Part shown: positions 2 through 14,887 of the stretch, in pieces
How the letters are laid out: each line of letters begins with the position of its first letter
How positions within the stretch are numbered: position 1 is the first letter of the stretch
Origin: Myxococcota bacterium
GTDB taxonomy: Bacteria; Myxococcota_A; Polyangia; Nannocystales; Nannocystaceae
Direction of reading: 5' to 3'
DNA: 64,000 nt
Assembly (NCBI GenBank): GCA_039028615.1
Contig: JBCCHT010000035.1
Coordinates: 64,001 to 128,000 of the forward strand
The notes under the pieces: generated by a model
The model's database searches: none
What the model saw: only the letters and a program-made list of their open reading frames with translations
Told to the model about the DNA's origin: nothing
Program-made: the position numbers and the translations under genes

Positions 2-1015
2 GCGCAGCAATGGCTCGCCAACGAGGCGGCCACTGGGCGTCGCGGCGACGACCTGTTCTTCGATATCAGCGCGCTGAGCCAACGGGTGGTCCTGGCGGTC
101 GGCTACAACCTCGACCCCGATGTGGCCTGCGTACGCGAGCTGGGCCGCGCTCTGCTCGAATACAAGTTTTGGTCGCTAAACTCCCACCCACGGGCCCGTA
201 TCGATGAATTCGGGTGGTCGCTGTCCAAGCTGGCCGACGTCCCCTGGGTGGTCCGACACCTCCGCAACCTCGGGCACCGCTTCGACCGAGTTCGACACGC
301 CGTCCAACGGGTCGTGCACGAACGACCGTGGCTCGACCCCGAACGCAAGGGCTGGGTCCAGAACCTCTTGGACGACGGCTTCGGTCTCGCCGAGCTCACC
401 CACGAGCTCAACCACCTCTATGGTGCCTACAACGCGGTGGACTTCGCGCTCACGGCCGGGCTCTACGAGCTGTTCGCACGCCCCGAGTGGCTGGCCAAGG
501 TCCGTGCCGAACGAACACGCCACCAGCCCGTGCTGCCTTCCATGCTCGAGAGCATGCCCGCCACCCGAGCGGTGATGCAAGAGACTCTGCGGCTCTACCC
601 CGCCGCCATGGTGATCTTCCGCAGATCTGGATCCACCATCCACATCGATGGCGAAGCGGTGGCACCGGGCACCACATTCATGATCATCACGGCCGGCCTG
701 CATCAAGACCGCGACCTGTGGGCGAACGCGGAAACCTTCGATCCTACGCGCTGGCTACCGTCCGCGCCGCCTCCACCTCGTTTCGCGTACATTCCGTTCC
801 TGCACGGCAATCGCAAGTGTATCGGGCAGCACCTCGCGGAGTGTGTGTTCATGACGGTGATGGGCACTCTCATCGATGACTACGATTTACACTGTGAGCG
901 GGCCGACGTTCGGTTGAGCCCCTTCATCATTCCTCGCTTCGACGGTCCGATCCCCTACCGGCTCAGCCGAAGATCGGACGAAGACACCCGTGCCCGGGGC
1001 CGTGCAACGGGATGA
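2..1015 (+). CDS. Cytochrome P450, 5'-truncated by the window edge
   Basis: Frame is open from base 2. ExxR (ETLR), FDPTRW meander and heme-ligand motif FLHGNRKCIG are present. The I-helix is atypical (HLYGAYNAV). Confidence 0.93.
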   Translation, partial: AQQWLANEAATGRRGDDLFFDISALSQRVVLAVGYNLDPDVACVRELGRALLEYKFWSLNSHPRARIDEFGWSLSKLADVPWVVRHLRNLGHRFDRVRHAVQRVVHERPWLDPERKGWVQNLLDDGFGLAELTHELNHLYGAYNAVDFALTAGLYELFARPEWLAKVRAERTRHQPVLPSMLESMPATRAVMQETLRLYPAAMVIFRRSGSTIHIDGEAVAPGTTFMIITAGLHQDRDLWANAETFDPTRWLPSAPPPPRFAYIPFLHGNRKCIGQHLAECVFMTVMGTLIDDYDLHCERADVRLSPFIIPRFDGPIPYRLSRRSDEDTRARGRATG

Positions 1016-1956
1016 CTGACGTCGGCGCTCGCGGTGGCGAGTGGCACCCTCGGCCCAAGTCCGTCATGTTGAATTCAATGGGAAACCTGCGTCATATGTT
1101 GCGAATCGGGTGGCTGATGGCTCGGCCCGGTCGTAAGAACCGAGCCTCCGAGCTGTATGAGCTCTTCTCCGAGGAACGCGTAATGGGGCGCGATAGCCTC
1201 TATCTCAACTTCGGCTGGTGGGAGGATGGGCAGACCAACTACGACACGGCCTGTGAGGCGCTCGCCATCGAACTCGGCGAGGCCGCCGGCATGAAGTCGG
1301 GGGAGCGCTTGCTCGATACCGGCTGTGGCTTCGGCGACCAGGACCTCCTGTGGCTGGAGCGATTCGGCCTCGAGCACATCACCGCGGTCAATATCAGCGA
1401 ACGGCAGGTTCGCCGGGCCCGTGAGCGGGTGGCCGAGCGGGAGCTCTCCGAGCAGATCGACGTGGTGCACGGTTCGGCCACGGCCACCGAGCTACCGTCG
1501 GCCAGCTACGACGTCGTGACCGCCCTCGAGACGGCGTTCCACTACGACACCCGCGAGGAGTTCTTTCGCGAGGCCTATCGGGTGCTCGCACCCGGGGGCC
1601 GCTTGGCGCTCGCCGACCCCATTCCTCAGGAAGGGTCGCTGTCGAGTCTGCGCTTTCGCATGGAGATGCGCGTCAATCGGGCGTTTTGGCAGATTCCCGC
1701 GGATAACGTCTACGAGCCCACCGCGTACCGCGACAAGCTCGCTCAGGCGGGTTTCGAGGGCATCGAGATGCGCTCGATCCGAGACCGTGTCTATCCCGGC
1801 TTGCTCGAGTTCATGCGCAATGCGGCCGACACTCCCGACTATCAGCAGCGCTTCGACCCCGTATTCCTCAAGGGCCTGCGTTCGGTGGGCGGCAGCACCA
1901 CCGCGTTCAACGGCATGGACTACTTCATCGTGACCGCGACCAAGCCGGCGGCTTGA
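1012..1956 (+). CDS. Class I SAM-dependent methyltransferase (EryG/McyJ-like O-methyltransferase type)
   Basis: LYLNFGWW, motif I LLDTGCGFGDQ, ALETAFHYDTREEFFREAYRVLAPGGRL. ATGA overlap with the P450 stop. Confidence 0.9.
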   Translation: MTDVGARGGEWHPRPKSVMLNSMGNLRHMLRIGWLMARPGRKNRASELYELFSEERVMGRDSLYLNFGWWEDGQTNYDTACEALAIELGEAAGMKSGERLLDTGCGFGDQDLLWLERFGLEHITAVNISERQVRRARERVAERELSEQIDVVHGSATATELPSASYDVVTALETAFHYDTREEFFREAYRVLAPGGRLALADPIPQEGSLSSLRFRMEMRVNRAFWQIPADNVYEPTAYRDKLAQAGFEGIEMRSIRDRVYPGLLEFMRNAADTPDYQQRFDPVFLKGLRSVGGSTTAFNGMDYFIVTATKPAA

Positions 1957-1984
1957 GTCGCGCGTTCGCCCCACGCCTCAGTCG

Positions 1985-2020
1985 AAACCTCCCGTGCCCC
2001 AGGGGCGCGGGAGGTTTTCT
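1985..2020 (+). terminator. Intrinsic terminator between convergent genes
   Basis: Inverted repeat aaacctcccgtgcccc / ggggcgcgggaggttt with one G-U pair, running into ttttct. Confidence 0.7.
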
Positions 2021-2056
2021 CGATCCGGGTTCCTCGTTCGCGAGCGCTCGGATCGA

Positions 2057-3394
2057 CTACGCGGCGGTCGCCGGGCTTCGACGGCTCACCGTGAGGGCGA
2101 GGGGATCGGCGAAACGAGACACCGCAAACTCGGTCATCCGACCGTGATCGGGGCGCACCTGCACCGCGAATTCGGCCGCAACTGCGGCGACAAAAGCAGT
2201 GAGAGCCGTCTCGGCCAAGTGACGCCCCACGCACTTGCGAGGGCCCCGAAGGAACGGAACGAAGGCAAACGACCGCGACAGATCCGGGTCGCGAAGCCAG
2301 CGATCGGGGTCGAACTCGTGTGGTCGGTCGAAGACCTCGGGATTGCGCTGAAGTGCCGACATGAGGATCAACGCCTCACTGCCCTTGGGCCACGTACGAC
2401 CGGCCACGACCATGGGCTCGCCGAGGCGACGCGCGACGGTCCACGTTGCCGGGTGGCACCGCAGCACCTCGAGAATGAACGCCTGCGTGAGAGGAATCTG
2501 CGGGAAATCGGGCCGAGACGGCACCGACCTCCCGCTGGCACTCCCCCACTCCTGAAGCTCCTCGGCGACGCGAGAGGCCAGGTCGGGATGTCGCGACAGT
2601 TCCAGCACGCACGCCGTAAACGAGAATGCCAGGGCGTCGAACGCCCAGTACAGATGCATCAGCTCGTCGGCGATGGCTCGGTCTTCCGACCCTGCCCGAG
2701 CGAGGCCCGCCACCCAGCTCGGGTCGGGCACATCGTCGTCTACGGGCCGCCGCCACCCCTGCGCCTGCACGAGCCGGGCGATGCGTCGGCGAACGACCTT
2801 GGCCGCACGGGACGTATGTCGACGATTGATGAAGAAGCGCAGGACTTCACGCAGCCCCATGCCGACCTGGTCGAGCCGTGTGTTCGGAGCTTCGCTTTCA
2901 TCCAACCAATCGGCCAGGGCCTCACCCAATGCCCGACCCTCACGATCTTCGGGACCCAGCCCGCAGGCGGCCTTGATGAACAACGCGCGCCCCACATGAC
3001 GGAGCTCGTCGGCCAAGTCCGCGGGCGGGCGGCCCGACCACCGCGCCAGCGCATCGGTGGTGAGACCGTGCACGAACGTGGAGAAGCCATCGACGTGGCT
3101 CCTCTTGAAGCCAGGCATCATCGCCACCGCGTGCGGGCGCCAGTCGGCATCGTCGACGAAGAGTAGCCCCCGGAGCCCGGGAAAGACGGTACGGACCAGC
3201 TGGTACCAACGACTACGGAGATGAGTGTGGGGTCGATGGGTGAGCAGAGTCTTCACGACTTCGGGGTCACTGGTCGCCATTGCTCCCGAGAACGCGAAGC
3301 TCTTGCCGTGGCGTTGTACCACTACGCTCCAACCTCGGGCGCCATGGGTCGCCAACAATTCCCGGACCTCGCGTACCCGAACCGACCTCACCAT
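2057..3394 (-). CDS. Cytochrome P450
   Basis: EVLR, FDPDRW and FLRGPRKCVG are present. The I-helix is atypical (HLYWAFDAL). Start moved from 3517 to the ATG at 3394 (uncertain). Confidence 0.9.
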   Translation of the reverse strand: MVRSVRVREVRELLATHGARGWSVVVQRHGKSFAFSGAMATSDPEVVKTLLTHRPHTHLRSRWYQLVRTVFPGLRGLLFVDDADWRPHAVAMMPGFKRSHVDGFSTFVHGLTTDALARWSGRPPADLADELRHVGRALFIKAACGLGPEDREGRALGEALADWLDESEAPNTRLDQVGMGLREVLRFFINRRHTSRAAKVVRRRIARLVQAQGWRRPVDDDVPDPSWVAGLARAGSEDRAIADELMHLYWAFDALAFSFTACVLELSRHPDLASRVAEELQEWGSASGRSVPSRPDFPQIPLTQAFILEVLRCHPATWTVARRLGEPMVVAGRTWPKGSEALILMSALQRNPEVFDRPHEFDPDRWLRDPDLSRSFAFVPFLRGPRKCVGRHLAETALTAFVAAVAAEFAVQVRPDHGRMTEFAVSRFADPLALTVSRRSPATAA

Positions 3395-3572
3395 TACCCT
3401 CGGGTCATAGCATGCAACTGCGGTCGAGACCCGTGCTGAAACGACATGGCATTTGACACGGTTGTTCGTGCTGCCATAGTCCGCACACCGGGGGAACTGC
3501 ATCGACGGAGCATTCATGCTCTCGTCCGAGCACTCTTCGGTCGTGCCCCGAAACTGCGAGCGGAAACATCAC

Positions 3573-4847
3573 ATGACTCGGACCAGTACCGTGCTCGACA
3601 AACCCCATCGCAGCCCAGCGATGCGCGTGGTCAATGGTGTCGGGCAACGGCTTCCATGGCTCAAGCGCGCCGCCTTCCCTCTGGAGGCCCAGGCGCTGAT
3701 CGCCCGGGCCGAGCGACAGGCGGGCGTGCGGGGTTCGGAGTTCCGACTCCCGCCTGAACACTACGCCGAAGGCTTGTCGCGACTCCTCGCCAGCCTTCGT
3801 GAAGAAGCCGAGCTCACCGCCACCGGGCAAGCACTTGCGCACACCATGGTGGTGGAATCTCTTGCCACCCGCATGCGCCTGGAACATCTGTGGAGCCGAA
3901 CTCCCCAGCGGCCCGAACCGATCCGCGCCCCCCTGTTCGTCGTGGGTCTGCCGCGCACGGGCACGACCTTTTTATACAAACTCCTCAACCAGGATCCCCG
4001 CAACCGGGCCCCCCTGACGTGGGAATTACGCTGGCCAGAGGCCCATTTGGCCGGTCAGGCGCAGGTTCGTAGGCGAATCCGCCAGACCCAGCGTGGCGTA
4101 GATCTGCTGTACCGCATGTGCCCCGGGCTGGATGCGATGCACTTTTCCAGTGCGACCACCCCCGAGGAGGACTTCTCCATCTTCCGGCTCGAGCTGTGCA
4201 GCACCTATTTCACCGTGTTCTTCCACGTGCCGAGCTACAACGAGTGGGTCGTCGACCAGACGAAACACCAATCATTCGGGATTCATCGGCGTGTTCTCGA
4301 GACGCTGTCTCGGCCCTCGACTCCGGCTCGCGCTCTGGGCGAGCGCTGGCTACTGAAGTCCCCCGAGTACCTGCGCCGCCTACCCGCTCTGTTTGAAACG
4401 TACCCGGACGCACGCATCATCCACTGCCATCGCAGCCCTGCCCACGTATGCGGATCCGAAGCCAGCCTGATCTCCATGGTCCAGGGCATGGCGTCGGACG
4501 TCGTCGACGTCGCGGCCAAGCGTAGGCAGCTCCAGGCGGTCTTTGCCGACATGTTGAGCGAAGGAATGCGAGCACGTCGAGCCCTGCCGAACGGGCGCGA
4601 GTGTGCATTCGACCTGCGCTATGCCGACCTCGTGGCCGACCCCATGGCGGCGGTCGAGCGCATCTACGACCACTTCGGTGATCCCCTGAGCGACGAAGCA
4701 CGACGGCGCATGCAGGCGTTCTTGGCCAGAAACCCCAAAGACCGACGCGGTAAGCACCAATACGAAGTGCCCCAGCTGACCGACCTCCGCGACGAGGAGG
4801 CCCGCGTGTTCTCCGAGTACTGCGACGAGGTCGGGATCCCGCTGTGA
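3573..4847 (+). CDS. PAPS-dependent sulfotransferase (Sulfotransfer_3 family)
   Basis: 5'-PSB loop FVVGLPRTGTTFL, WLLKSPEYL, 3'-PB region RIIHCHRSP, and LRYADLVADP. ATG at 3573 preferred. Confidence 0.9.
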   Translation: MTRTSTVLDKPHRSPAMRVVNGVGQRLPWLKRAAFPLEAQALIARAERQAGVRGSEFRLPPEHYAEGLSRLLASLREEAELTATGQALAHTMVVESLATRMRLEHLWSRTPQRPEPIRAPLFVVGLPRTGTTFLYKLLNQDPRNRAPLTWELRWPEAHLAGQAQVRRRIRQTQRGVDLLYRMCPGLDAMHFSSATTPEEDFSIFRLELCSTYFTVFFHVPSYNEWVVDQTKHQSFGIHRRVLETLSRPSTPARALGERWLLKSPEYLRRLPALFETYPDARIIHCHRSPAHVCGSEASLISMVQGMASDVVDVAAKRRQLQAVFADMLSEGMRARRALPNGRECAFDLRYADLVADPMAAVERIYDHFGDPLSDEARRRMQAFLARNPKDRRGKHQYEVPQLTDLRDEEARVFSEYCDEVGIPL

Positions 4848-4854
4848 TCCAACG

Positions 4855-5502
4855 GTGTTTCGCGAGAATCGACCGATGCTGGGCCTTCTGAGCGGAGTCG
4901 CCTGCGGCACGATGGCCTTTGCCGCCCGCCTGGGATTCGACCTTCGTCGGGCCCTGGGAAGACACGTGGTGCACCACCCTCATGGCTGGCGGGCGATCGT
5001 CGGCGTTGGCACCGAGCATACGCATCCGCGTGTCCGCGCCATGGCTGCGCCCGCATATCCCCTGCCCGAACAGCACGCGATCTACCTGTTCGCGAACAAT
5101 CCCGAGCAGCCCCATGCACGTTTCGGCGAGCTGCTCCGTGGTCGCCCGATGTTTCGGTTGCTACCGGGTGACGGGCACTTCCGAGTATCCGGCACCGTTG
5201 GCGAGCTGCAATGCGCGTGGTGGAGCCTGACCGCCTACGACGCCGAGGGCAGGCCGATGTCCGAGGACCAATCGGAGTGCTCCCTGCTCGACCGCGACCT
5301 GAAAGGCCCCGACGGAGCCTTCGAGATCGACGTGTGCGCGACCCGTCCGCGACCCCCCGCACCGGGGCGCCGTTGGCTTCGCGTACGCCCCGGAGAGCCC
5401 TTCCAGCTGGTCCTGCGCGTGTACGAGGCCCAGCACGACGGCGACGTCGCTCAATGGCCTGTACCGCTCATCCAGCACGCCCAGGGGGGCCCTGCGTGCT
5501 GA
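4855..5502 (+). CDS. DUF1214-like domain protein with N-terminal hydrophobic segment
   Basis: WWSLTAYD, DGAFEI and FQLVLRVY match the DUF1214 pattern. The start may be the ATG at 4876. Confidence 0.7.
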   Translation: MFRENRPMLGLLSGVACGTMAFAARLGFDLRRALGRHVVHHPHGWRAIVGVGTEHTHPRVRAMAAPAYPLPEQHAIYLFANNPEQPHARFGELLRGRPMFRLLPGDGHFRVSGTVGELQCAWWSLTAYDAEGRPMSEDQSECSLLDRDLKGPDGAFEIDVCATRPRPPAPGRRWLRVRPGEPFQLVLRVYEAQHDGDVAQWPVPLIQHAQGGPAC

Positions 5503-6002
5503 CCTTCCTCCCTGCGTTCGTGGCCACCTGGGGGGCTCTGAGCGCCGTCGACCGGCTGCTCACCTCCGCCGCGCCCCAGTGGCGATTGCGACGATCGTTG
5601 CACAAAAACCTCGGGCTGAATGGGGCGACGAACGTCCTGCACCATGTCGACGAGATCACCCCGATGGCGGCAGTCGACTTGCTGTACTCGGTGGCGGAAT
5701 TCGATCTGAGCGAGGGCCCGCTGCGGCTGCACGTCGCCCCCACCGACGACTATCGGGCGCTTCAGTGCGCGACAACGAGCACGGTCACCTTCGCGTACCG
5801 GAGCACGAATACGACCCCTCGTCTCGGCTCGACGACGACACTCGTCGGTCCACGAGACGCGGAACATGACGATCCGTCGGCCTTACGCTGCCCCGATTCG
5901 CGGGGGTTGCTGGTGTTGCGCTTTTTGGTCACAGATGCCGCTCATCGGGCTCGCATCGACGAAAAGCGCCGCGAGTGCCGACTCGAGATCGGCTCGCGGT
6001 AG
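5496..6002 (+). CDS. DUF1254-like domain protein
   Basis: DLLYSVAEFDLSEGPLRLHVAP and GLLVLRFLV. GTG start overlaps the upstream stop; this is the 3' part of track ORF 5211..6002. Confidence 0.7.
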   Translation: MLTFLPAFVATWGALSAVDRLLTSAAPQWRLRRSLHKNLGLNGATNVLHHVDEITPMAAVDLLYSVAEFDLSEGPLRLHVAPTDDYRALQCATTSTVTFAYRSTNTTPRLGSTTTLVGPRDAEHDDPSALRCPDSRGLLVLRFLVTDAAHRARIDEKRRECRLEIGSR

Positions 6003-6182
6003 CGCTCTGCGGACTCAACTTCACCGTCCAGTCGCGGCGGTTTGCGTCTGCGCACGTCGTTTTTTTTCAGATCGAGTGAACGGAATCGGCTTCGGTTGGA
6101 ATTCCCAATGTGCCGGGTGTTCTTCGAAACATGCGCATTCCATCGCATTTCGTGGTCACCCCTCTTATCGAACGGACATCGG

Positions 6183-8435
6183 ATGCAAATCATCGATCCA
6201 TCCCAAGCTGCCGCCGGCTCCCATATCGCCGAACGCTCTCGTTTCGCCCACGCGGTGGACCTTGCCGTCGAGGACCTTCCGCATGACGACGCAACACTGG
6301 AGTGGTGGTACGCCAATGGCCATATTCGTGACACTGAAGGCCGAGAATATTCGTTGTTCATGGCGATCTTCCGCACCGCGGTCGAGGAGCTCGAAGATGG
6401 GACCTATCGCTGGGGCCACGCGCTGACCTGGGGACTATCGAGCCTCGACGAGCGCCGCTATATCGCAGAATGTCTGGTCGATCAGGACTCGGCAGAGATC
6501 GGCCTCGATCGCCTGGATCGAGGCATTGGACCCCAAGATGAACGCCTACGAAAAGCGCTGCGAGAGGTCATGGAGCGGGGTGAAGTGCCACGACCCGACA
6601 TCCAGCTCTCACGGCCTCCAGTGTCCGCCTCCGACCGTCTACACCTCGACCTCGATGAGCGAGTATTCGAATCACTCGGCGGAGATCGCTACCGCCTACG
6701 CCTCCATCACACCGAGCTGGAGGCCGGCTGCGAGCTGATCTTCCAGCTCGAAAAACCCATCGTACTGCACGGTGACAACGGCGTAGTCACCGGATCGACC
6801 CTGGACGAGATGTTCTACTACTTCTGCCCGCGTTGTTCGGTGGAAGGCAGCATCGTCGTCGATGGCGAACGCCGTGAAATTGCGTCGGGATCGTTCTGGT
6901 ACGACCACGAGTACGGCCGCGGCGACGATCCCGACGACAAGGCCTGGGAAGCGCGCTGGAACTGGATCTCCGCCCAGTTCGACAACGGCTGGGAGATGAC
7001 GATCTACGACGTCTTCGACAGCGACGACGGCAGCCCCACCGACCATGTCGCCTTGCTGATCGACCCCGAGGGTCGACGCCACGAATATCGAGAGTTCTCG
7101 TTCACCGGCGATCGGCCCTGGGTCAGTGCGCGCACGTTCCAGAGCTACCCGACGCGCTGGAAGATCGACATCCCGGAGATCGAGCTGTCGCTCGAAGCCA
7201 CGGCCCCCTTCCCCGAGCAGGAGTTCGTCACGTACATCACCAAGGCCCCGTTCTGGGAGGGCCGGGTCGATGTCCGCGGCACCTTCGCGGGGCGCCCGGT
7301 GACTGGCCCGGGCTACGTCGAGCGAGCGGGCTTCGGCGGCGTCGACAGCCTCGAGGATTTCTTCGGTGCCGTCGGTGATGCCACCCGTCGCTCGGTCCGA
7401 GGGATCTTGCCGAACGAGCCCAGCCGTGACGACCTGCTTCGCATCACCGCGGACGAAGAGCATCGGCACTACACCGACTCGATCGATCCGGGCCGCTTCC
7501 GCGAGACGGTCATCGAGCCCATCCGAGGCGTCGTCGATCGCGGCGGCAAGGCATGGCGGTCCTACTGCTTGCTCGCCTGCTGCGACGCGGTCGGGGGAAA
7601 CTCGCAGGAGTACCTGCCCTGGCTCGCGCTGCCCGAGCTGCTGCACGTGGGCTCGCTCATCGTCGACGACGTGCAGGACGATTCGGAGAACCGCCGTGGC
7701 GGCCCCGCGTGTCACCTCGTGCACGGCGTGCCCTTGGCCATCAACGCGGGCAACCTCAGCTACTTCCTGCCCTACCTGGCCATGAGCACGGTCGAGCTCA
7801 CGGAGGGTCAGCGCCTCGAGATCTACGACGAGTACTTCCGCGCCGTGCGAGCCGGACACGTCGGGCAGGCGCTCGACCTCGCGGGGCTGCTCCCGCTCAT
7901 GGCCACCACGGTGGACAGCGGCGATGCGAGCGAACTCAAAGCGCAGGTCCTGTCGACCCATCGCCTCAAGTCCGCAGCACCCGCCGCCGCGCTGGCGCGC
8001 ATCGGTGCGATCCTGGGCGGCGGGTCTCGGGCCCAGATGGAAGCCCTCGGTACCTATCACGAGAGCCTCGGGCTCGCCTTCCAGATCATGGACGACGTGC
8101 TGAACCTCCGCGGCTTCGAGCGCGACCTCAAGGACCGCGGCGAGGACATCACCGCGGGCAAGGTCACCGTGCCCATCGCCATGGCCATGGCCGAGCTGGA
8201 GGCCTCACAGCGCGCTCGCGTTCACCGAGCGCTCGAGGCCCACACCAGCGACCCGGACGAGCTGTCGTGGGTCCTGCGCACGCTGGAGGACACGGGTGTG
8301 TTCGACCGAGCCGAGGCCGAAGCGCGCCAGCTCGTCGAAGAGGGCTGGGCCGCGGTGGCCCCCCTGCTCAAACCCTCGGTTCACTCCGTGCACCTGCGGG
8401 CGTTCGGTTCCTTCGTGCTCGACCGGCACTACTGA
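6183..8435 (+). CDS. Fusion: CrtC/AttH lipocalin-like domain + trans-polyprenyl diphosphate synthase
   Basis: N-half: EWWYANG, WYDHEYG, WNWISAQF, YPTRW, FWEG, GPGYVE. C-half: GGKAWR, FARM LIVDDVQD..RRG, SARM FQIMDDVLN, GEDITAGK. ATG at 6183 preferred. Confidence 0.9.
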   Translation: MQIIDPSQAAAGSHIAERSRFAHAVDLAVEDLPHDDATLEWWYANGHIRDTEGREYSLFMAIFRTAVEELEDGTYRWGHALTWGLSSLDERRYIAECLVDQDSAEIGLDRLDRGIGPQDERLRKALREVMERGEVPRPDIQLSRPPVSASDRLHLDLDERVFESLGGDRYRLRLHHTELEAGCELIFQLEKPIVLHGDNGVVTGSTLDEMFYYFCPRCSVEGSIVVDGERREIASGSFWYDHEYGRGDDPDDKAWEARWNWISAQFDNGWEMTIYDVFDSDDGSPTDHVALLIDPEGRRHEYREFSFTGDRPWVSARTFQSYPTRWKIDIPEIELSLEATAPFPEQEFVTYITKAPFWEGRVDVRGTFAGRPVTGPGYVERAGFGGVDSLEDFFGAVGDATRRSVRGILPNEPSRDDLLRITADEEHRHYTDSIDPGRFRETVIEPIRGVVDRGGKAWRSYCLLACCDAVGGNSQEYLPWLALPELLHVGSLIVDDVQDDSENRRGGPACHLVHGVPLAINAGNLSYFLPYLAMSTVELTEGQRLEIYDEYFRAVRAGHVGQALDLAGLLPLMATTVDSGDASELKAQVLSTHRLKSAAPAAALARIGAILGGGSRAQMEALGTYHESLGLAFQIMDDVLNLRGFERDLKDRGEDITAGKVTVPIAMAMAELEASQRARVHRALEAHTSDPDELSWVLRTLEDTGVFDRAEAEARQLVEEGWAAVAPLLKPSVHSVHLRAFGSFVLDRHY

Positions 8436-9775
8436 TGGCGCCGGCCAAGCAAAACAAGGGGTGGGGCCAGGTCAAGACGCTGGCCAAGCTCGCGGTGGGT
8501 GTCCCCGCCTTTGCGACCAGCATCGCGACCGAGGCTCGGCTGACGTCGCTGTTCAAGCTGCCCTTCCCCCGCGACGTCGACGAAATCCTCCATGCTCCCG
8601 AGCGATTCTTCAGCCTCCTGCAGGAGGCGGGAGCCCTGCCGGCCCGGGCCGAGCTGCTCGGGATCCAGCAGGGGGAGGGACTGCACAACGAGCCGGACAA
8701 GCAGCGAACCTCGGGAATCCTCGAGGTTCGTTGGTCCGATGGTCCGCTCGACGCAAGAGCACCGTCGACACCCGCGCGATCCCAGCGACTGTTCGTGAAA
8801 TTTCAAAACGGCCGCGGCCTGCCGCTGTGGCTGCAGGCGATGCGAGCCACCGTCGAGTGGGGCATCGCGCGCGAGGTCGACTTCTATCGTCGGCTGGCCC
8901 CCACCGCGCCCCTGCGGGTGCCCAAGGCCATGTACGCGAACTACCTGCCGGCCTTCAACCGCGTGTGTCTCGTGCTCGAGCACACCGAGGGCTACAACCT
9001 CGCCGACTGGCGTGGCTGCCCGATCACGGCGGTACGAGCCATGCTGCGCGACGTCAGCCGGCTCAACGCCACCTACTTCGGCCGGGTCGACACGGACTCT
9101 CGCTCGTCGTGGATCCCCGCGCGATCGGGCCTCGACTACGCGTCGTTCGTCGGAGACTTCATGGCGGGTGAAGCCGACTGGTACCGCCAGATCTGGGCCG
9201 CGTTGGTCGACTACTTCGCCGACCACCCGCTCACGCTCGTGCACGGCGATTGCCGCCCGGGCAACATGCTCTTCGTCGACGATGGCGACATTCAGCGCGC
9301 CGTGGAATCGGGAGACGACGATGATCGGCGCCGCTGGGACGACGACATCGACGACACCGAGGTCGTCTTCCTCGACTGGGAGGCGACCAATGCCGCGCCG
9401 CTGTGGTGGGATTTCACCTACTGCACCACGGTCGGCATCACCGTCGAAGACCGCCGCGCCCTGCGCCCACGCCTTCTCGACGAGCACAGAAGAAATCTCA
9501 TCAAAAATGGCGTGCCCGAATCCATGCTCGGTCCACAGCGTTGCCGCGTGGAAGTCGAGCTGCTCACCCTCGTGTTGGTGTTCGTCGCCAAGCTGGTGCG
9601 CACCAAGGGCTTCTGGGACCGCCAAGGCAATACGGCCGAGGACTTCGCCGCGTGGGACGAGAGAATCCGCGCCGTAATCGAAGACGCCGACATCCCCACG
9701 ATCACGAACGCACTAGGGCTTCCCGCCGAGCCGCTGCACGAGCTCAAGCGCGCCGCCGCGGATTGGCAGTTCTAG
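8435..9775 (+). CDS. APH/EcKinase-like small-molecule phosphotransferase
   Basis: LFVKF, EVDFYRRLA, Brenner motif HGDCRPGN, and FLDWE. The ATG overlaps the upstream TGA (tgatg); this is the 3' part of track ORF 7553..9775. Confidence 0.85.
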   Translation: MAPAKQNKGWGQVKTLAKLAVGVPAFATSIATEARLTSLFKLPFPRDVDEILHAPERFFSLLQEAGALPARAELLGIQQGEGLHNEPDKQRTSGILEVRWSDGPLDARAPSTPARSQRLFVKFQNGRGLPLWLQAMRATVEWGIAREVDFYRRLAPTAPLRVPKAMYANYLPAFNRVCLVLEHTEGYNLADWRGCPITAVRAMLRDVSRLNATYFGRVDTDSRSSWIPARSGLDYASFVGDFMAGEADWYRQIWAALVDYFADHPLTLVHGDCRPGNMLFVDDGDIQRAVESGDDDDRRRWDDDIDDTEVVFLDWEATNAAPLWWDFTYCTTVGITVEDRRALRPRLLDEHRRNLIKNGVPESMLGPQRCRVEVELLTLVLVFVAKLVRTKGFWDRQGNTAEDFAAWDERIRAVIEDADIPTITNALGLPAEPLHELKRAAADWQF

Positions 9776-9802
9776 GTCGCCCTGCACTCGACGAGGTCAA
9801 CG

Positions 9803-11125
9803 ATGGGCTCCGCTGCTGCTGCCATCCCTACCGTCACGCTGCCTCCGGTCACCGCTCGCTTTCCCGGGCCTCGCCTACCCGAGGCACTCTTTCGCTTCGC
9901 GCGTACGAACAACGCCGCCGAGTTCCTGCTCGAGATGCGGCGCAAGTACGGCGATGCTTTTGCGATCCGGGGCCCCGACCGGCTGTACGTCGTGCTGTCT
10001 CGCGAGGACCACTTCGACGAGATCCTGATCCGAGCCAAGGACCGATACACCAAGGACTACTCACTCGCTCCGCTGGAGCTTCTGTGTAATCCGAAGGTGC
10101 TCTATCCCAACGCGACCGAGCGAGCGCGGCTTCAACGGATCTTCCGACGTCGCCTGACTCGTCGCTCCCTCAGCGGCAACGATGAGCGAATCCAACGGCT
10201 GGCCCGCCAGGCATGCGGCTCGATCCCGTCGCGTTTCCTGCGCGGGGACGGAGTGCAGCTGATGCGGGTCATGTTGGACCTGCATTTTCGTGCCTGGATC
10301 TCCGCACTGCTGGGCACCGATCCCACTCGGGACCTCGGTGAGCTGCCGGACGAGTTGTTCTGGCTGGCGGAGTACCTGCCCCACGCGTGGTTCACCCGCC
10401 CCTTCCCCAGCCCGTGGCGAAACAAGAGCGACCGGCTGATACGGGCGGTCCGTGGATACCTCCATCACCTCGTCCGCACCCAAGCGCCGGATGCCGACGC
10501 GGCCATGGATTGTCATGCGCTCCGCAAAGAACTCAGCGACGACGAGATCGTCGACCACGTCGCGATCTTGTTGATGACCTCGGCGGCCGTCCCCGCTCAA
10601 CTCGCGACCGCGTTGCACTGCATCGTCCGCGACCCGCAGCGGGTCAACGCTCTGTGCGCAGTCGAATCCCCCGACGAAAAACAGACCCGTGAACACCAGC
10701 TCTCGCTACTTCTCAGCGAGAGCTTTCGCATGTATCCCGCGGCGTCGATCATCCTGCGAGACGCCACGGACGACCATGTCGTGGAAGGGTGCTCGATCCC
10801 CAAGGGCTCCGTGGTGCTGCTGCCCACGTACGTCCTCAACCGCGACCCGGGTCGTTGGTCCGAGCCCGACGTGTTTCGTCCCGAACGCTTCGACACCGAC
10901 GAGGCGCTCCCCGACTGTTTTCCCTTTGGGCGAGGGCCACGGTTTTGCATGGGCGCGAGCTACTCGCAGATCTTCATGCCCGCGGTGCTGGACCAGTTCA
11001 CCCGCAACTTCTCCATCGAGCTGCTGGAGCGAGACGAGCGGTACTCGCTGTCTCTCCCGCTGTCGTTTCGCTCGTCGAAGGTACGGCTGAGCCCGCGCCC
11101 CGCCATGGCGCTGTCGCGCGAGTAA
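9803..11125 (+). CDS. Cytochrome P450
   Basis: ESFR, FRPERF and FGRGPRFCMG are present. The I-helix is atypical (ILLMTSAAVP). Confidence 0.92.
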   Translation: MGSAAAAIPTVTLPPVTARFPGPRLPEALFRFARTNNAAEFLLEMRRKYGDAFAIRGPDRLYVVLSREDHFDEILIRAKDRYTKDYSLAPLELLCNPKVLYPNATERARLQRIFRRRLTRRSLSGNDERIQRLARQACGSIPSRFLRGDGVQLMRVMLDLHFRAWISALLGTDPTRDLGELPDELFWLAEYLPHAWFTRPFPSPWRNKSDRLIRAVRGYLHHLVRTQAPDADAAMDCHALRKELSDDEIVDHVAILLMTSAAVPAQLATALHCIVRDPQRVNALCAVESPDEKQTREHQLSLLLSESFRMYPAASIILRDATDDHVVEGCSIPKGSVVLLPTYVLNRDPGRWSEPDVFRPERFDTDEALPDCFPFGRGPRFCMGASYSQIFMPAVLDQFTRNFSIELLERDERYSLSLPLSFRSSKVRLSPRPAMALSRE

Positions 11126-11135
11126 ACCAACGCTT

Positions 11136-11168
11136 CGGTCGCGAGTCGAATCGTTCGACTCGCGACCG
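11136..11168. terminator. Perfect 15-bp hairpin, probable bidirectional terminator
   Basis: cggtcgcgagtcgaa-tcg-ttcgactcgcgaccg lies between the convergent P450 and FMO genes. Confidence 0.7.
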
Positions 11169-11186
11169 TGGATGCTCAGCGCCCTG

Positions 11187-12734
11187 CTACAGCCGCACGC
11201 TTCGCTGCAGCCGGCTCATGACCGCGAAGGCACGGGGCCGTACCCGCTCCGTACCGTGCAGCCGTAACTCGATCGCCTTGCAGAGGCGATCGAACTGCTG
11301 CTCATCTGCGAACTGCGTGTAGCTCTGCCGGGCCAGTCGGGCGGGGAGACCCAAGTCGCGGAACAAGCTCACCAGTGTGTCGATGATGTGGCTGACCTCG
11401 AAGCTGTAGGGCATGCCACCGCTGTCGTTGCGACCGGTGGCGCACCAGGGCGTCGTCGTGCCCTCTTCGCGAGCGAGCGCCTGCTCCATCTGGGCGACCG
11501 TCGGCTGACGATGCAGTCGATGGGCGTGGAAGCGGGCGAGCCACTCGGCCGCGATCGAGAAGCCGAACGCCTGCTGGGGAAAGATGATCTCGGCGCTGAA
11601 CAGCGAGACGGCCGGGATCACCGGATCGACCATCTGCCGGTGCAGCGAGGGCCGCAGGCGCGGGTCGTAGCCTTGCTCGCCGCCTTCGCGCACGATTCGA
11701 ATCTCGGGCAGGTTGGCGGCACGACGGTACCCTGTTGCCAGGATCACGTAGTCGGCGGGCAGGCGCTCGCCCTCGTCGGTGATCAATGCGTCGGGCTCCA
11801 GCCCTTGCACGCCCGCCTTGGTCCGCGCCACGGCCCGCAGCAGCTCGGCCTGGTCTGCGCGAAGCACCGCCCCGCGGTGCAAGAACACGTCCGAGTCGGG
11901 CTCGAAGGGGTTGACGATGAAGCCCTCCCGCACGAGCGGCCGACTGAGCCGGTGCATGAGTTCACTGTGGCCCATCGCCTTGCGAAGCTTGCCCAGCGCA
12001 AACGCATACGCGACCAACGCCGACTGACGCGGTCCCATACGTCCATACATGAACTCGTACGAGTAGGCCCATAGCGCCTTGCGGTAGACGCAGGCCATGC
12101 GTTGGTGGCCGCGACGAGCCAGGCTGCACAAGATGTCCTGCGCCGACTTGCCCGCGCCCACGACCACCGCCCGGCGATCGTTGTCGAGGATGTCCTCGAG
12201 CATCGCGCGGTCGAACTCACTCGAGTGCACGACGGTGCCGCGAAAGTCGGACTCGCCGGGGAGCTGCGGGCGATTGGGCGTACCGGCGTTGGAAAAACCC
12301 AGCGCGCACACCACGATGTCGCAGCGCAGCGGCTCCCGCTCGCCGGTCTCGGTGTCGACCACCGTCAGCTCGCACGCGGGAGACTGGCCCGGACGATACG
12401 CGATCGACTCGACCCGGACGCCGAAGCGAATGTGCTCACGGAGCGCGTGGTCGCGGGTGAAGTCGTGAAAGTACTGCAGCACCTCGTCGCGACTCGCCTG
12501 CTCGTTGCGGGTCGCGATGGGCCGATAGTCCGCGTAGCGATAATTGTGAGCGCGTGAGTGCGTGGTCAGGTCTGGATAGTCGACCTTGCTCCACACGCCG
12601 CCGACATCGGCGGCCATCTCGAGGCACTCGACTCGCCGGAAGCCAGCGCGTTGCATGGCCCGCAGCACGGCTAGGCCGCCTGCCCCCGCGCCGATCACGA
12701 CCACGTGTTTGTCAATCATCGTCTTTGTGCTCAT
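11187..12734 (-). CDS. Class B flavin-containing monooxygenase (FMO-type)
   Basis: GAGAGG (FAD), FMO fingerprint FRGTVVHSSEF, GAGKSAQD (NADPH), and ILATGY. Confidence 0.9.
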   Translation of the reverse strand: MSTKTMIDKHVVVIGAGAGGLAVLRAMQRAGFRRVECLEMAADVGGVWSKVDYPDLTTHSRAHNYRYADYRPIATRNEQASRDEVLQYFHDFTRDHALREHIRFGVRVESIAYRPGQSPACELTVVDTETGEREPLRCDIVVCALGFSNAGTPNRPQLPGESDFRGTVVHSSEFDRAMLEDILDNDRRAVVVGAGKSAQDILCSLARRGHQRMACVYRKALWAYSYEFMYGRMGPRQSALVAYAFALGKLRKAMGHSELMHRLSRPLVREGFIVNPFEPDSDVFLHRGAVLRADQAELLRAVARTKAGVQGLEPDALITDEGERLPADYVILATGYRRAANLPEIRIVREGGEQGYDPRLRPSLHRQMVDPVIPAVSLFSAEIIFPQQAFGFSIAAEWLARFHAHRLHRQPTVAQMEQALAREEGTTTPWCATGRNDSGGMPYSFEVSHIIDTLVSLFRDLGLPARLARQSYTQFADEQQFDRLCKAIELRLHGTERVRPRAFAVMSRLQRSVRL

Positions 12735-12746
12735 TCGCTGCGGGAC

Positions 12747-13592
12747 TCAAGCCGCCATCTCAGGCCGGTGAGCATGCACCATGATCGCCGGCCCTGCATC
12801 GGCGGCAGGCTTGACGACGAAGCCCTTGTCTTCGAGCAAGTCGACGATGAGCTGCCGATCCGGGAAGTGCCATTCCAGGGCGATCTTGCGAATCTTGGAC
12901 CACACCGAGGTCGGTAGGCTTGCCAAGACCTCTCGCTCCGCGCCTTCGATGTCCATTTTGAGGAAATCGATGCGCTCTACGCCCGAGCTCTCGAGGACCC
13001 GCTCCAGGGTATTGAACTTGCATCGTACGCGATCGCTCTTCTCGTAGAACGAGTACATCCTAGGGACGACGACGTGAAAGAGCGACGGGAAGGCCCGGAG
13101 GAGCTTGTGCAACATGGGAAACGCGACCTCGAGATAGACCATCGCATCGTCATAGGACGTCGATGCCTGGCGCTGCGTCTCCTGGAGTTCTCTGCAGTCG
13201 TTCGAAAACGCCGACATATTGCGGTAATAGTTGAGATCTCGCTCCTCGACCTTGTCGGACAGACCGAAGTTGTGGATATGAACCACGCCTTCGAGGTTCT
13301 TGACCGCGATGTTCTTCTTCAGGATGGAGAAGGTCTGGGGCACCGGCTCGAAGGTGAACACCTTGCCATTGGGTCCGCAGCGCTCGGCCGCGTAGCAGCT
13401 GAATAGCCCGATGTTGCCGCCCGCATCGAAGACCGTGTCTCCTTCTTCGATGGCGACTTCGTCCAGGGTATAGGTCTCGTTGACGAAGACTTCCTCGGCG
13501 ATGAGTTTGCAGGGCAGCCGATCGCGGCCGACGAAACATTCGCCCATGCCGGGAAGGTTGGCTTTGCGCATATAGTGTCGTTCTCGACTCAT
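12747..13592 (-). CDS. FkbM-family methyltransferase
   Basis: VFDAGGNIGLFS, VFTFEP, IDFLKMDIEGAE, ALEWH. ATG at 13592 overlaps the upstream P450 stop (ATGA); this is the 3' part of track ORF 12747..14906. Confidence 0.9.
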   Translation of the reverse strand: MSRERHYMRKANLPGMGECFVGRDRLPCKLIAEEVFVNETYTLDEVAIEEGDTVFDAGGNIGLFSCYAAERCGPNGKVFTFEPVPQTFSILKKNIAVKNLEGVVHIHNFGLSDKVEERDLNYYRNMSAFSNDCRELQETQRQASTSYDDAMVYLEVAFPMLHKLLRAFPSLFHVVVPRMYSFYEKSDRVRCKFNTLERVLESSGVERIDFLKMDIEGAEREVLASLPTSVWSKIRKIALEWHFPDRQLIVDLLEDKGFVVKPAADAGPAIMVHAHRPEMAA

Positions 13593-14887
13593 GGTGAATT
13601 CCTCGGCTTCAGGCGCGCAATGGGGCCTTGCAGGCGATAGGGCAGGCTCTGGCAGACCCGGCCGTCCAGCTCGGGTTGCTCGAAGCGAAAGTGCCGAAGC
13701 ACATGATCGAGCAGAGGCGCCATCACGGCTTCGGCAAAGCTCTTGCCGATGCAAAACCGCGGCCCCCGGCCATACGCGAAGATGTCTGGTCTCGCCGCTT
13801 CCGTTGCGAACCTCAGAGGGTCGAACCGCATCGGGTCGGGCCATATCGCGGGGTCTCGATTGACCAAGATCGTGGGGAGGACCACCACCGACCCCTGGGC
13901 AATGTGATACCCCGCGATCTCGCAGTCGAGGGTGGTATCGCGCAAGATCAGCGACGACACCGGATGTAGACGCAGAGTCTCTTGCAACGCCAATTGAAGG
14001 GCTTGGCGCCGCGCCTCTCCCGTCGATTGCTCGATACGCCGCAGTTCCTCTGGATTGGACAACAGCTCGTGCAAGCACGATTCGAGTAGCACGGGGACGT
14101 TGATCGACGAGTACAGCAGGATCAGCACATTTTCGCGGAGCTGCTCTTCGGTCAGCCGTTGGCGCAGCTCCCGACAATTCAATACCGCGTCCGTGTCGGC
14201 GGGCTGGGACTCGATGAGATCGCGGACATGGGCTCGCAGCTCGGAGATCGCCGTACGAGCACGCGAACGCCACGGTGTCGGCACGATCCGGGTCGGCCAG
14301 ACGCGTGGGAGCAGACCCGTGAGTTCGAGGCTGCGTTGTCCCATGTGCCTCGGATCCGCCGCGATGTCGGCCCCGAGGTAGAAATTCAGCAGCACTCGAT
14401 AGTGTAGATCCAAGAGTAGATCGATGACCGGACGGGGATGGCCGTCGACGAACCGCGCGGGAGTGGTGCTGCACGCCGCCTCGATGGCAGTCCCAAAGCC
14501 CCCGCCACGGGCCACGATGGGGGCGCGGGACAGCAGTGGCCGAAAGATGCCGCCGAGTCGACGGCGTTCCGCTTCGTCTGGATAGAGCAGTTCCTTGGAA
14601 CACATCAGCTCGAGCGGCTCGAGCGTGAAGCTCTTGGTGAAAAACCCCCGAGATCGGACGAGAACCTGCTCGAATTCTTCCGCGTGCCCGATCACGACGT
14701 AGGGTCGACCGGGGGCCGGAATCGAGAACACCGGACCATGACGGCGAGCCATGCTCGCGATCGCGTCGCAGACATTGCCGTGCCTGAACATCTGCATCAA
14801 CGCCGTGGTCGTCGACGGCCCTCGCGGCACCGGGGCAGTGCGAGTTCGGCTTTCGTACGCTCGAGAGGGCTGTGGTTCCACAGGCAT
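13589..14887 (-). CDS. Cytochrome P450
   Basis: ETLR, FDPLRF and YGRGPRFCIG are present. The I-helix is atypical (ILLYSSINVP). Confidence 0.92.
   Translation of the reverse strand: MPVEPQPSRAYESRTRTAPVPRGPSTTTALMQMFRHGNVCDAIASMARRHGPVFSIPAPGRPYVVIGHAEEFEQVLVRSRGFFTKSFTLEPLELMCSKELLYPDEAERRRLGGIFRPLLSRAPIVARGGGFGTAIEAACSTTPARFVDGHPRPVIDLLLDLHYRVLLNFYLGADIAADPRHMGQRSLELTGLLPRVWPTRIVPTPWRSRARTAISELRAHVRDLIESQPADTDAVLNCRELRQRLTEEQLRENVLILLYSSINVPVLLESCLHELLSNPEELRRIEQSTGEARRQALQLALQETLRLHPVSSLILRDTTLDCEIAGYHIAQGSVVVLPTILVNRDPAIWPDPMRFDPLRFATEAARPDIFAYGRGPRFCIGKSFAEAVMAPLLDHVLRHFRFEQPELDGRVCQSLPYRLQGPIARLKPRNSP

Follow-up and report, generated by a model that had tools for sequence, protein, structure and literature searches.

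A 14-gene cluster that appears to build and decorate an isoprenoid chain was found in a myxobacterial genome of the Nannocystaceae. Its core gene encodes an AttH/CrtC-fold domain fused to a trans-prenyl diphosphate synthase, and it is not accompanied by a terpene cyclase gene. It is proposed, with moderate confidence, that a terminally hydrated chain of GGPP type is converted into a linear diterpenoid that is oxidised, methylated, and anionic, through a cyclase-free and likely acquired pathway. A description of the fusion or of the cluster was not found in the literature searched, outside which most subscription journals fell. This agrees with the preliminary description, in which the locus was called an undescribed isoprenoid cluster.

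Gene content and organization

Twelve of the genes occupy positions 2-14887 of the window, which is the whole 64,000-nucleotide stretch analysed (contig JBCCHT010000035.1, here C35, positions 64,001 to 128,000). Two more lie wholly upstream of it (Table 1). The 12 ORFs have codon bias of coding type, and their Pfam families are those first reported: four P450s (E 1e-30 to 1e-40), a class I methyltransferase, an FkbM methyltransferase, Sulfotransfer_3, DUF1214, DUF1254, a CrtC+Lipocalin_9+polyprenyl_synt fusion, an APH phosphotransferase, and an FMO-like protein. The catalytic motifs are intact. These are the heme Cys and ExxR (4/4 P450s), HGDCRPGN and DWE (kinase), GLPRTGTT (sulfotransferase), GAGAGG (FMO), and the SAM loops (methyltransferases). 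Stop codons and frameshifts are absent from the cluster genes. Translational coupling was borne out by four start/stop overlaps in the window (1012-1015, 5496-5502, 8433-8437, and 13589-13592), with one more upstream. The cluster is not one operon, because its genes occupy both strands in about five blocks.

Table 1. Genes of the cluster, with window positions unless contig C35 is named.
Feature	Position	Strand	Remarks
MT0, class I methyltransferase	C35 60975-61961, upstream of window	+	33% identical to MT1
Stand-alone AttH/CrtC-fold gene	C35 61958-63415, upstream of window	+	WxD Asp missing (WWQHAW)
P450a, 3' part	2..1015	+	Whole ORF 456 aa, C35 63645-65015, starts about 355 bases before window
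MT1, class I methyltransferase	1012..1956	+	ATGA overlap with P450a
P450b	2057..3517	-	Probable start near 3394; 31% to P450a
Sulfotransferase	3516..4847	+	Sulfotransfer_3; probable start 3573
DUF1214 protein	4855..5502	+	Pfam
DUF1254 protein	5496..6002	+	Pfam; overlaps DUF1214 stop
Core fusion, 750 aa	6183..8435	+	AttH/CrtC double-barrel domain and trans-prenyl diphosphate synthase
APH-fold small-molecule kinase	8435..9775	+	Coupled to fusion by TGATG
P450c	9803..11125	+	36% to P450d; canonical acid-alcohol pair absent
Flavin monooxygenase, FMO/BVMO-like	11187..12734	-	Pfam
FkbM-family methyltransferase	12747..13592	-	TIGR01444 over cut-off; ATGA overlap with P450d
P450d	13589..14887	-	Canonical acid-alcohol pair absent

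The earlier suggestion that core genes might lie beyond the cut left end did not hold. The upstream sequence supplied MT0, the stand-alone AttH/CrtC-fold gene, and the N-terminus of P450a, and nothing else of the cluster. Therefore, no hidden core gene adjoins it, and none was seen in the 13 kb of genes listed. Further upstream, the genes listed are lipoprotein-like ORFs and a cobalamin-type gene set (names from reading the sequences).

As had been stated for positions 2-14887, genes for PKS, NRPS, or cyclases were not found by Pfam among the 14, the upstream genes included. The cluster encodes no terpene cyclase of class I or II; matches to PF19086, PF03936, and TIGR01787 are confined to other contigs. 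Phytoene synthase and desaturase are absent from the 14 genes and, by reading, from the listed flanking genes, and no phosphatase, ferredoxin, or exporter is encoded in the cluster. There is no tRNA in the cluster or in 20 kb upstream, flanking repeats do not exceed 13 bp, and a promoter/terminator scan of the cluster did no better than chance. RNA runs with the locus were not listed. One marine metagenome DNA run matched and is possibly the source.

The fusion protein and the second AttH fold

The AttH/CrtC domain of the fusion (about 25-390) carries E40-W41-W42, W239-Y-D241-H242, and W259-x-W261. The prenyl synthase domain (about 390-750) carries DDVQD (495-499), H559, and DDVLN (637-641). 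The predicted structure (pLDDT 92.2, pTM 0.90) has two domains, and the N-terminal one is a double lipocalin barrel that matches AttH 2ICH (Z 35.2, rmsd 3.2, 314 aligned) and kievitone hydratase (Z 32.6) better than the pericyclase CghA (Z 24.2). Asp241 aligns with the WxD Asp of AttH (WLD in 2ICH) and of kievitone hydratase (WYD). It is kept in 142 of 145 homologs, as are W259/W261, with W41 kept in 140. CrtC requires D268 plus W110/W283/W285 and hydrates C12-C20 terpenes at the terminal prenyl unit (PMC12402844; PMC4717167). The likeness to the RgCrtC residues is one of motif pattern, not of alignment to the RgCrtC sequence. Another AttH protein hydrates the isoprene chains of archaeal lipids (bioRxiv 2025.10.20.683597). 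By analogy to CrtC, kievitone hydratase, and Hgs, the fusion likely hydrates the terminal double bond of its chain.

The C-terminal domain is a trans-isoprenyl diphosphate synthase (PF00348, E 1.5e-44) and matches GGPP synthase 3QQV in fold (Z 35.1). Both Asp-rich motifs and H559 are kept in 145/145 homologs. It did not attain any NCBIfam equivalog, the best score being 127.8 bits against 468. Small residues precede the first Asp-rich motif, and these and the invariant H559 presumably fit the chain-length rule of type III GGPP synthases. By that rule, a GGPP-length (C20) chain is predicted.

The stand-alone AttH protein has the same double-barrel fold, again nearer to hydratase-type proteins (Z 30.9/28.4) than to the pericyclase (Z 21.9). 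It reads WWQHAW at the WxD site, where all nine other aligned rows have Asp, and its best full-length relatives are 28% identical; the gene appears degenerate.

P450s and other tailoring enzymes

The four P450s are of unusual type. In P450a, GAYNA replaces AGxET in the I-helix, and P450b has Asp-Ala where Glu-Thr is expected. The I-helix pairs of P450a to P450d are NA, DA, AV, and NV, with the register less sure for P450c and P450d. The Thr is thus missing from 4/4, while 16/20 other P450s in the host genome keep it. Given this, the chemistry may be substrate-assisted or non-standard. P450a belongs to a rare family that was not found in 300 genomes of the class nor in 400 further genomes of a Bacteroidota sample.

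The best solved relatives of MT1 are RebM-like 3BUS, MitM, and 4PNE, with the longest match to 4PNE. Against the GPP-methyltransferase model it reached 42 bits of 400, and the FPP-, IPP-, and GGPP-methyltransferase models did not appear among its matches. A homoterpene pathway would pair such a prenyl-diphosphate C-methyltransferase with a terpene synthase, which the cluster lacks. The solved relatives of the sulfotransferase are 2ZQ5 and 2Z6V, presumably of mycobacterial origin, and the host encodes APS kinase, which serves sulfation. No solved sequence relative was found for the kinase or the FkbM enzyme. A kinase acting on tertiary isoprenoid alcohols, 25-HSK, has been described (PMC8449060).

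Proposed pathway

In the proposed pathway, the fusion would build a C20 (GGPP-length) chain, and its AttH domain would add water to the far-end double bond to give a tertiary alcohol. The diphosphate would be removed by a host phosphatase, the cluster having none. The neighbouring enzymes could then oxidise, methylate, phosphorylate, and sulfate this scaffold into an anionic diterpenoid. Both the order of steps and the service of all 14 genes to one product are presumed. Against this pathway, four P450s and an FMO exceed the needs of a simple linear product, the full gene set is unique among the 89 locus records compared, genes for a phosphatase, a ferredoxin, and an exporter are lacking in the cluster, and geranylgeraniol is a poor CrtC substrate, with 4% conversion (PMC12402844).

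A bolder form of the proposal is tentative and rather improbable. AttH-fold and prenyl-synthase fusions would be unrecognised, widespread terpene scaffold synthases that replace the cyclase (at least six bacterial phyla, with PX-domain versions in protists). Here a cation cascade, or hydration, phosphorylation, and elimination with the kinase and the Asp-less AttH protein, could act with Thr-less P450s that rearrange the skeleton, giving a new class of sulfated diterpenoids.

It is unlikely that the AttH domain is instead a new protonation-initiated terpene cyclase, or the Asp-less AttH protein a pericyclase, leading to a polycyclic diterpenoid whose rings the four P450s remodel. The [4+2] cyclases CghA, Fsa2, and Phm7 do share the fold (Z 20.7-24.2), the architecture resembles fungal prenyltransferase-cyclase fusions, and 4PNE is taken here to be the cyclase SpnF. 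CrtC chemistry has also been proposed to start like that of squalene-hopene cyclase, with Asp protonating the terminal alkene (PMC4717167), and the P450s without Thr recall the gibberellin ring contraction that loss of a P450 acid residue enables (PMC10293830). However, both AttH domains lie nearer to hydratases than to pericyclases, and the characterised members cited (CrtC, kievitone hydratase, and Hgs) are 3/3 hydratases. In addition, the core at loci L207 and L226 is joined directly to glycosyl- and sulfotransferases, enzymes that need a hydroxyl.

Recurrence and probable acquisition

The AttH part of the fusion is present in 53/400 sampled genomes of the host phylum, and full fusions were seen in further bacterial phyla as well as on protist-like contigs. 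The co-occurrence of the genes expected from the preliminary description was seen for single tailoring classes and not for the set. The whole cluster was not found in 89 locus records (some duplicates), 40 relatives, or, by DNA search, 60 family genomes. Matches were obtained in nine of the latter, in eight of them within the fusion gene and in the ninth over 70 bp of MT1. At most two of the tailoring genes occur at any other locus among the 89 records.

Each of the kinase, P450a family, FkbM, FMO, and sulfotransferase classes accompanies the fusion in one or more further genomes. In a Polyangiales MAG (L026), the gene immediately before the fusion homolog joins a kinase part (52%) to a domain of the P450a family (40%), and L032 has the order glycosyltransferase-fusion-LMF1-P450-P450. 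Both loci were located via the fusion, so their linkage to it carries an ascertainment bias. A Bacteroidota MAG has two P450a-family genes together with the fusion. Other arrangements are fusion-FkbM-UGT (L110) and fusion-FMO-methyltransferase (a Nitrosomonas plasmid). On a Tolypothrix plasmid, sulfotransferase, glycosyltransferase, and fusion form a single 1,500-aa protein adjoined by an ABC exporter and cysC; the same architecture is found in L226. The fused sulfotransferases are of the same Pfam family as that of the cluster and gave no tblastn match to it. Close homologs of P450c, MT1, the sulfotransferase, and the stand-alone AttH gene were not found in the five fusion-bearing genomes tested for each. 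The kinase had only two weak matches in 400 genomes, on contigs other than those bearing the fusion. Most Myxococcota copies of the fusion have as neighbours an unknown gene of 200 aa, seen in 33 records of which 28 are distinct, and a membrane protein, seen in 27 records, without oxidases. Therefore, the usual job of the fusion may be housekeeping.

The cluster was likely acquired horizontally, because grouping of its fusion copy with those of the same family is rejected (p-AU 0.0007) and its GC3 is low (0.80 against 0.884 +/- 0.038). That GC3, the five blocks on both strands, the occurrence of the full set nowhere else, and the degenerate stand-alone AttH gene with its distant relatives could also point to a small genuine module (fusion, kinase, and P450a/b) among unrelated or decaying detoxification and tailoring genes. 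Sulfotransferase-DUF1214-DUF1254 might then be one cassette and P450d-FkbM-FMO another. Such a mosaic is very unlikely in view of the open reading frames and retained catalytic motifs, the paralog pairs that tie the blocks (P450a/b, P450c/d on opposite strands, MT0/MT1, and the two AttH folds), and the missing Thr common to both P450 pairs. The FkbM, FMO, and sulfotransferase classes also accompany the fusion elsewhere, and mobile-element genes number 0/14.

Slightly less probable still is the decoration of a host sterol, an early suggestion that has weakened, or of a terpene from a cyclase encoded elsewhere. The AttH domain would hydrate the side-chain double bond, the kinase phosphorylate the resulting tertiary alcohol in the manner of 25-HSK, the stand-alone AttH protein remove the phosphate, and the P450s and FMO cut or oxidise the skeleton, giving degraded sterols like salimyxin. 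An oxidosqualene-cyclase-like gene with DCTAE is present in the host, as are nine class I terpene-synthase loci on contigs other than C35. A triterpene cyclase also occurs in the genome that bears the kinase-P450 fusion, and the sterol-modifying genes for salimyxin are called elusive (PMC6226438). However, a prenyl synthase fused to AttH would serve no purpose here. A triterpene cyclase over cut-off is missing from 4/5 other tailored-locus genomes (MAGs, which may be incomplete), and none was found in the Bacteroidota MAG with P450a family and fusion. Sterol_MT_C matched neither MT0 nor MT1 at E 0.01. The AttH fold of 25-phosphosteroid lyase matches the stand-alone protein (Z 21.9) only in a tie with CghA, and this lyase is absent from its profile search matches at E 10. 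Enhygromic acid was also considered as the product and was rejected: a class I cyclase route is proposed for it (PMC5408255), and a link to the cluster was not found.

Terpene clusters are normally located via their cyclase. A core of prenyl synthase and AttH fold would, if true, define a pathway family missed by such mining. The locus is the most elaborated fusion example seen here and a candidate source for orphan myxobacterial terpenoids. Also notable are its four P450s, which lack the usual catalytic Thr, and a kinase family for which no solved sequence relative was found.

Comparison with known systems

Among the closest known systems are CrtC, kievitone hydratase, and Hgs (PF07143+PF17186), which share the double-barrel fold, WxD Asp, and conserved Trp pair and all hydrate an isoprene double bond (PMC4717167, PMC12402844, bioRxiv 2025.10.20.683597). 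Unlike these, the cluster domain is fused to a prenyl synthase. It also has FYY for the HxW motif of CrtC, and no phytoene synthase or desaturase stands beside it.

The fungal chimeras (fusicoccadiene, variediene, and copalyl diphosphate synthases) also join a chain-building trans-prenyltransferase and a chain-modifying domain in one polypeptide, and their prenyltransferase domains are among the fold matches of the fusion (Z 21-27). Their partner is an alpha-helical class I/II cyclase, whereas here it is the all-beta AttH domain, and the cluster-type fusion is distributed in bacteria and protists.

The bacterial gibberellin operon contains a GGPP synthase, two cyclases, and several CYPs besides CYP114/Fd. 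It resembles the cluster in combining a GGPP synthase, as predicted for the fusion, with several P450s, one without the normal acid-alcohol pair (PMC10293830). The cluster lacks the cyclases and ferredoxin and has a kinase, a sulfotransferase, three methyltransferases, and an FMO.

In Sterolibacterium, a tertiary isoprenoid alcohol is phosphorylated by 25-hydroxysteroid kinase, and its partner 25-phosphosteroid lyase has the AttH fold (PMC8449060, PMC11061730). That pair is catabolic, anaerobic, and encoded by unlinked genes, and the fold match is unspecific. The mycobacterial sulfomenaquinone pathway (CYP128A1 and Stf3) is similar in that a P450 hydroxylates a polyprenyl-bearing lipid that is then sulfated (PMC7404182). 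There, two enzymes act on an existing quinone, whereas the cluster would make the chain itself.

Gene content and left end of the cluster

All 12 cluster genes in the window are real, and their Pfam assignments bear out the names in the preliminary description. They comprise four P450s, a class I methyltransferase (MT1), an FkbM methyltransferase, Sulfotransfer_3, DUF1214, DUF1254, APH kinase, and FMO genes, and the core gene, which carries CrtC, Lipocalin_9, and polyprenyl_synt on one polypeptide. The catalytic motifs of the cluster enzymes are intact. The translational coupling reported for several genes is seen as start/stop overlap in four gene pairs inside the window. Core genes had been suspected beyond the cut left end, and none lie in the 13 kb of upstream DNA surveyed. 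The retrieved DNA adds the N-terminus of one P450 (P450a) and two genes, a stand-alone AttH/CrtC-fold gene and a third methyltransferase. Farther upstream are lipoprotein-like ORFs and cobalamin-type genes, named by reading of the sequences. The full cluster has 14 genes at 60975-78887 of contig C35, approximately 18 kb of a 12.3 Mb host genome with 68% GC; the window covers 64001-128000 of this contig. The absence of PKS, NRPS, and cyclase genes, first stated for the 12 genes, holds for this extended set. Because both strands carry genes, arranged in about five blocks, the set is a cluster rather than a single operon.

Coordinates of cluster genes outside the window, flanking genes, and related loci in the host and other genomes
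Feature	Record	Position	Strand	Remark
Third methyltransferase (MT0)	cluster contig (C35)	60975-61961		upstream of window
Stand-alone AttH/CrtC-fold gene	cluster contig (C35)	61958-63415		upstream of window
Core fusion	window	6183-8435	+	750 aa
LGFP-repeat protein, large	window	15698-19909	+	right flank; GC3 0.74
Carboxypeptidase-regulatory-domain protein	window	19906-21105	-	right flank; GC3 0.66
SIR2-like + TPR protein	window	26071-28662	-	possible anti-phage defence
Kinase-WD40-FGE-sulfatase-domain protein	window	29532-33797	+	
Triterpene cyclase	host C5	41410-43338		DCTAE motif
P450	host C52	31113-32537		AGHHT motif, as in CYP51
200-aa partner (example)	L005	9224-9829		
590-aa membrane partner (example)	L005	12296-14047		
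LMF1-like protein	L026	4412-6643		after fusion
LMF1-like protein	L032	12484-14526		after fusion
LMF1-like protein	L116	3950-5137		after fusion
Four-part protein	L207	12622-17151		Tolypothrix plasmid
Four-part protein	L226	7105-11601		same-class genome
Stand-alone prenyl synthase	L102	6166-7236		same-genus genome
AttH-domain piece	L103	3-740		same-genus genome; cut by contig end
Fusion	L119	1525-4305		eukaryotic-looking contig
Fusion	L121	589-3348		eukaryotic-looking contig
Fusion	L125	4884-7706		eukaryotic-looking contig
Fusion	L127	9530-12397		eukaryotic-looking contig

The core fusion enzyme

The predicted structure of the fusion has a pLDDT of 92.2 and a pTM of 0.90. Its N-terminal domain model best matches the AttH protein NE1406 (Z 35.2, rmsd 3.2, 314 aligned) and kievitone hydratase (Z 32.6), and its C-terminal domain model matches GGPP synthases at Z of about 35. 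Across 145 aligned fusion homologs, H559 and the aspartates of the two Asp-rich motifs never vary; D241, W259, and W261 are each retained in 142 and W41 in 140. All three homologs that lack D241 belong to a single divergent clade. D241 falls at the WxD motif when aligned with AttH and kievitone hydratase. In CrtC, D268 is reported as the protonating residue, assisted by W110, W283, and W285, and the enzyme is described as hydrating C12-C20 terpenes at their terminal prenyl unit, with geranylgeraniol conversion at just 4% (PMC12402844, PMC4717167). The correspondence between fusion and CrtC residues is one of motif pattern. An archaeal AttH protein is reported to make hydroxy-GDGTs (bioRxiv 2025.10.20.683597). 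The fusion reaches no equivalog model in an NCBIfam search.

A divergent fusion clade (L028-L031) has lost the WxDHE motif and retained the prenyl synthase. Among the genes nearby are one for a lysylphosphatidylglycerol-synthase-like membrane protein and one for a phosphodiesterase.

Proposed pathway

The most likely working of the cluster, held with slightly more than even confidence, is a five-step pathway in which a chain is hydrated and then tailored. The prenyl-synthase domain probably builds a GGPP-type chain, whose predicted C20 length follows a motif rule for type III GGPP synthases. D241 of the AttH domain would protonate the far-end alkene, and addition of water would give a tertiary alcohol. 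A host phosphatase might possibly remove the diphosphate. The P450s and FMO, using host redox partners, would oxidise the chain, and methyltransferases would cap hydroxyls or acids. The kinase and sulfotransferase would add phosphate and sulfate; the host genome encodes an APS kinase, which is relevant to sulfation.

Alternatively, the AttH fold could act as a cyclase or pericyclase. Pericyclases (CghA, Z 24.2) and the 25-phosphosteroid lyase (Z 21.8) are lower-ranked matches of the N-terminal domain model. Cyclase or pericyclase activity is considered unlikely and is the foremost competitor of the hydration pathway.

Co-occurrence of tailoring genes with the fusion

The 14 cluster proteins were compared with 89 locus records (31 + 35 + 23, some duplicates), and Pfam scans of selected neighbours covered 84, 37, and 56 proteins. 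In none of the 89 records do more than two of the cluster's tailoring genes occur, which makes the complete cluster unique within the loci searched. Conserved co-occurrence in other genomes, whose absence the preliminary description named as a refuting result, was not seen for the whole set, but each tailoring class recurs with the fusion. That the genes instead make up a mosaic island appears improbable.

In a Polyangiales MAG (L026), a kinase (52% identical to the cluster kinase) is fused to a P450 (40% identical to P450a) immediately before the fusion. The order in a Bacteroidota MAG (L032) is glycosyltransferase, fusion, LMF1-like protein, and two P450a-family genes. Other loci combine the fusion with FkbM (29%), UGT, and FAD oxidase (L110) or with FMO (24%) and a methyltransferase (L209). 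In two records, sulfotransferase, glycosyltransferase, AttH, and prenyl synthase form a single protein. On the Tolypothrix plasmid its gene adjoins ABC exporter (devBCA-type) genes and cysC, and in the same-class genome it adjoins sulfatase, methyltransferase, and cis-prenyltransferase genes. These sulfotransferases share the Pfam family of the cluster enzyme and are not close homologs. An LMF1-like membrane protein follows the fusion in three tailored loci; tblastn of the host genome gave no match to it.

The P450a family is rare, with four other proteins at E 1e-40 and none in 300 class genomes or in 400 further genomes of a Bacteroidota sample. It adjoins the fusion in all three genomes where it was located, two of which were found via the fusion. 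Kinases of the cluster type form a small family (43 representatives at 1e-30) with some cyanobacterial members. Evidence against linking all tailoring genes to the core is that five genomes tested for each of P450c, MT1, the sulfotransferase, and the stand-alone AttH held no close homolog.

The host triterpene cyclase is oxidosqualene-cyclase-like, lies off the cluster contig, and scores over the cut-off for TIGR01787 and 688.6 bits against the TIGR03463 cut-off of 851. Nine class I terpene-synthase loci (PF19086) are also all on other contigs. Sterol decoration by the cluster is the least probable explanation, as four of five genomes with tailored loci have no triterpene cyclase over the cut-off.

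Unusual P450s and the stand-alone AttH protein

The I-helix threonine is missing in all four cluster P450s (aligned pairs NA, DA, AV, and NV) and is kept in 16 of 20 other host P450s. The cluster P450s are two paralog pairs, so the loss counts as two independent cases. The I-helix register is less sure in P450c and P450d, where a Thr/Ser lies a few residues earlier. A P450 without this threonine can serve substrate-assisted catalysis by a hydroxylated substrate, as in EryF. Another use is found in gibberellin synthesis, where a broken acid-alcohol pair is reported to enable ring contraction (PMC10293830).

The stand-alone AttH protein is missing the Asp as well as several motifs. In structural comparison its model (pLDDT 66) comes closest to AttH and kievitone hydratase, followed by 25-phosphosteroid lyase and CghA at equal rank. 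In Sterolibacterium, a kinase for tertiary isoprenoid alcohols is reportedly paired with an AttH-like lyase (PMC8449060, PMC11061730). This pair is an analogy for the cluster kinase and stand-alone AttH.

Distribution and origin

The three domains are present in all of the best 120 of 1,055 fusion matches, and 53 of the 400 genomes sampled from the phylum contain the AttH part. Full fusions also occur in Legionella, Bacteroidota, Verrucomicrobiota, and Burkholderiales, on plasmids of Tolypothrix and Streptomyces (a Nitrosomonas plasmid has a shorter match), and on eukaryotic-looking contigs. Two eukaryotic-type fusions bear an N-terminal PX (phosphoinositide-binding) domain, and two sit amid AP-4 adaptin, tubulin-tyrosine ligase, armadillo, and ankyrin genes. 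Trees place them among Myxococcota copies.

Oxidase genes are lacking near most Myxococcota copies. The usual partners of these copies are a 200-aa protein without a Pfam match (33 records, 28 distinct), which has no match in the host genome, and a 590-aa membrane protein (27 records). The latter is possibly GT-C-like; PMT_2 on 11% of one similar cluster is a lead only. These conserved partners hint that the fusion may have a housekeeping function connected with lipids or lipid carriers. In a same-genus genome, a stand-alone prenyl synthase of the fusion family (43%) adjoins FAD monooxygenase, acyltransferase, epimerase, and methyltransferase genes.

Fusion trees had 71 and 32 rows, with six duplicate loci excluded. 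The window's fusion does not group with two same-family copies (p-AU 0.0007, for a group chosen after the first tree was seen) and falls outside the clade of partner-bearing copies. A 16-row clade joining it with most tailored copies has a FastTree support of 92 and is absent in IQ-TREE. Mean GC3 is 0.80 in the cluster, against 0.884 +/- 0.038 in 445 genes of three large contigs and 0.837 in the remainder of the cluster contig. DNA matches in 60 family genomes were to the fusion gene alone, plus one 70-bp piece. Neither an att site nor a tRNA gene was detected. It appears likely that the cluster was acquired by horizontal transfer. Both right-flank genes have low GC3, so the acquired stretch may extend to a point approximately 21 kb into the window.

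Comparison with known systems

No account of the fusion or cluster was found in the titles and abstract openings of a literature library with few subscription journals; passages of PMC10881772 yielded nothing on such a pathway. Enhygromic acid (PMC5408255) and the salimyxins (PMC6226438) are described as terpenoids of marine myxobacteria and are orphans; no link between them and the cluster was found. Carotenoid cluster and canonical terpene cluster were both rejected as classes for the locus. The cluster is a real, uncharacterised elaboration, apparently strain-specific, of a widespread unstudied core enzyme. By prediction, this core resembles a hydratase of the CrtC/kievitone type attached to a GGPP synthase, an arrangement that parallels fungal prenyltransferase-cyclase fusions. 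The predicted tailoring brings to mind both the gibberellin operon and the reported CYP128/Stf3 sulfation (PMC7404182).
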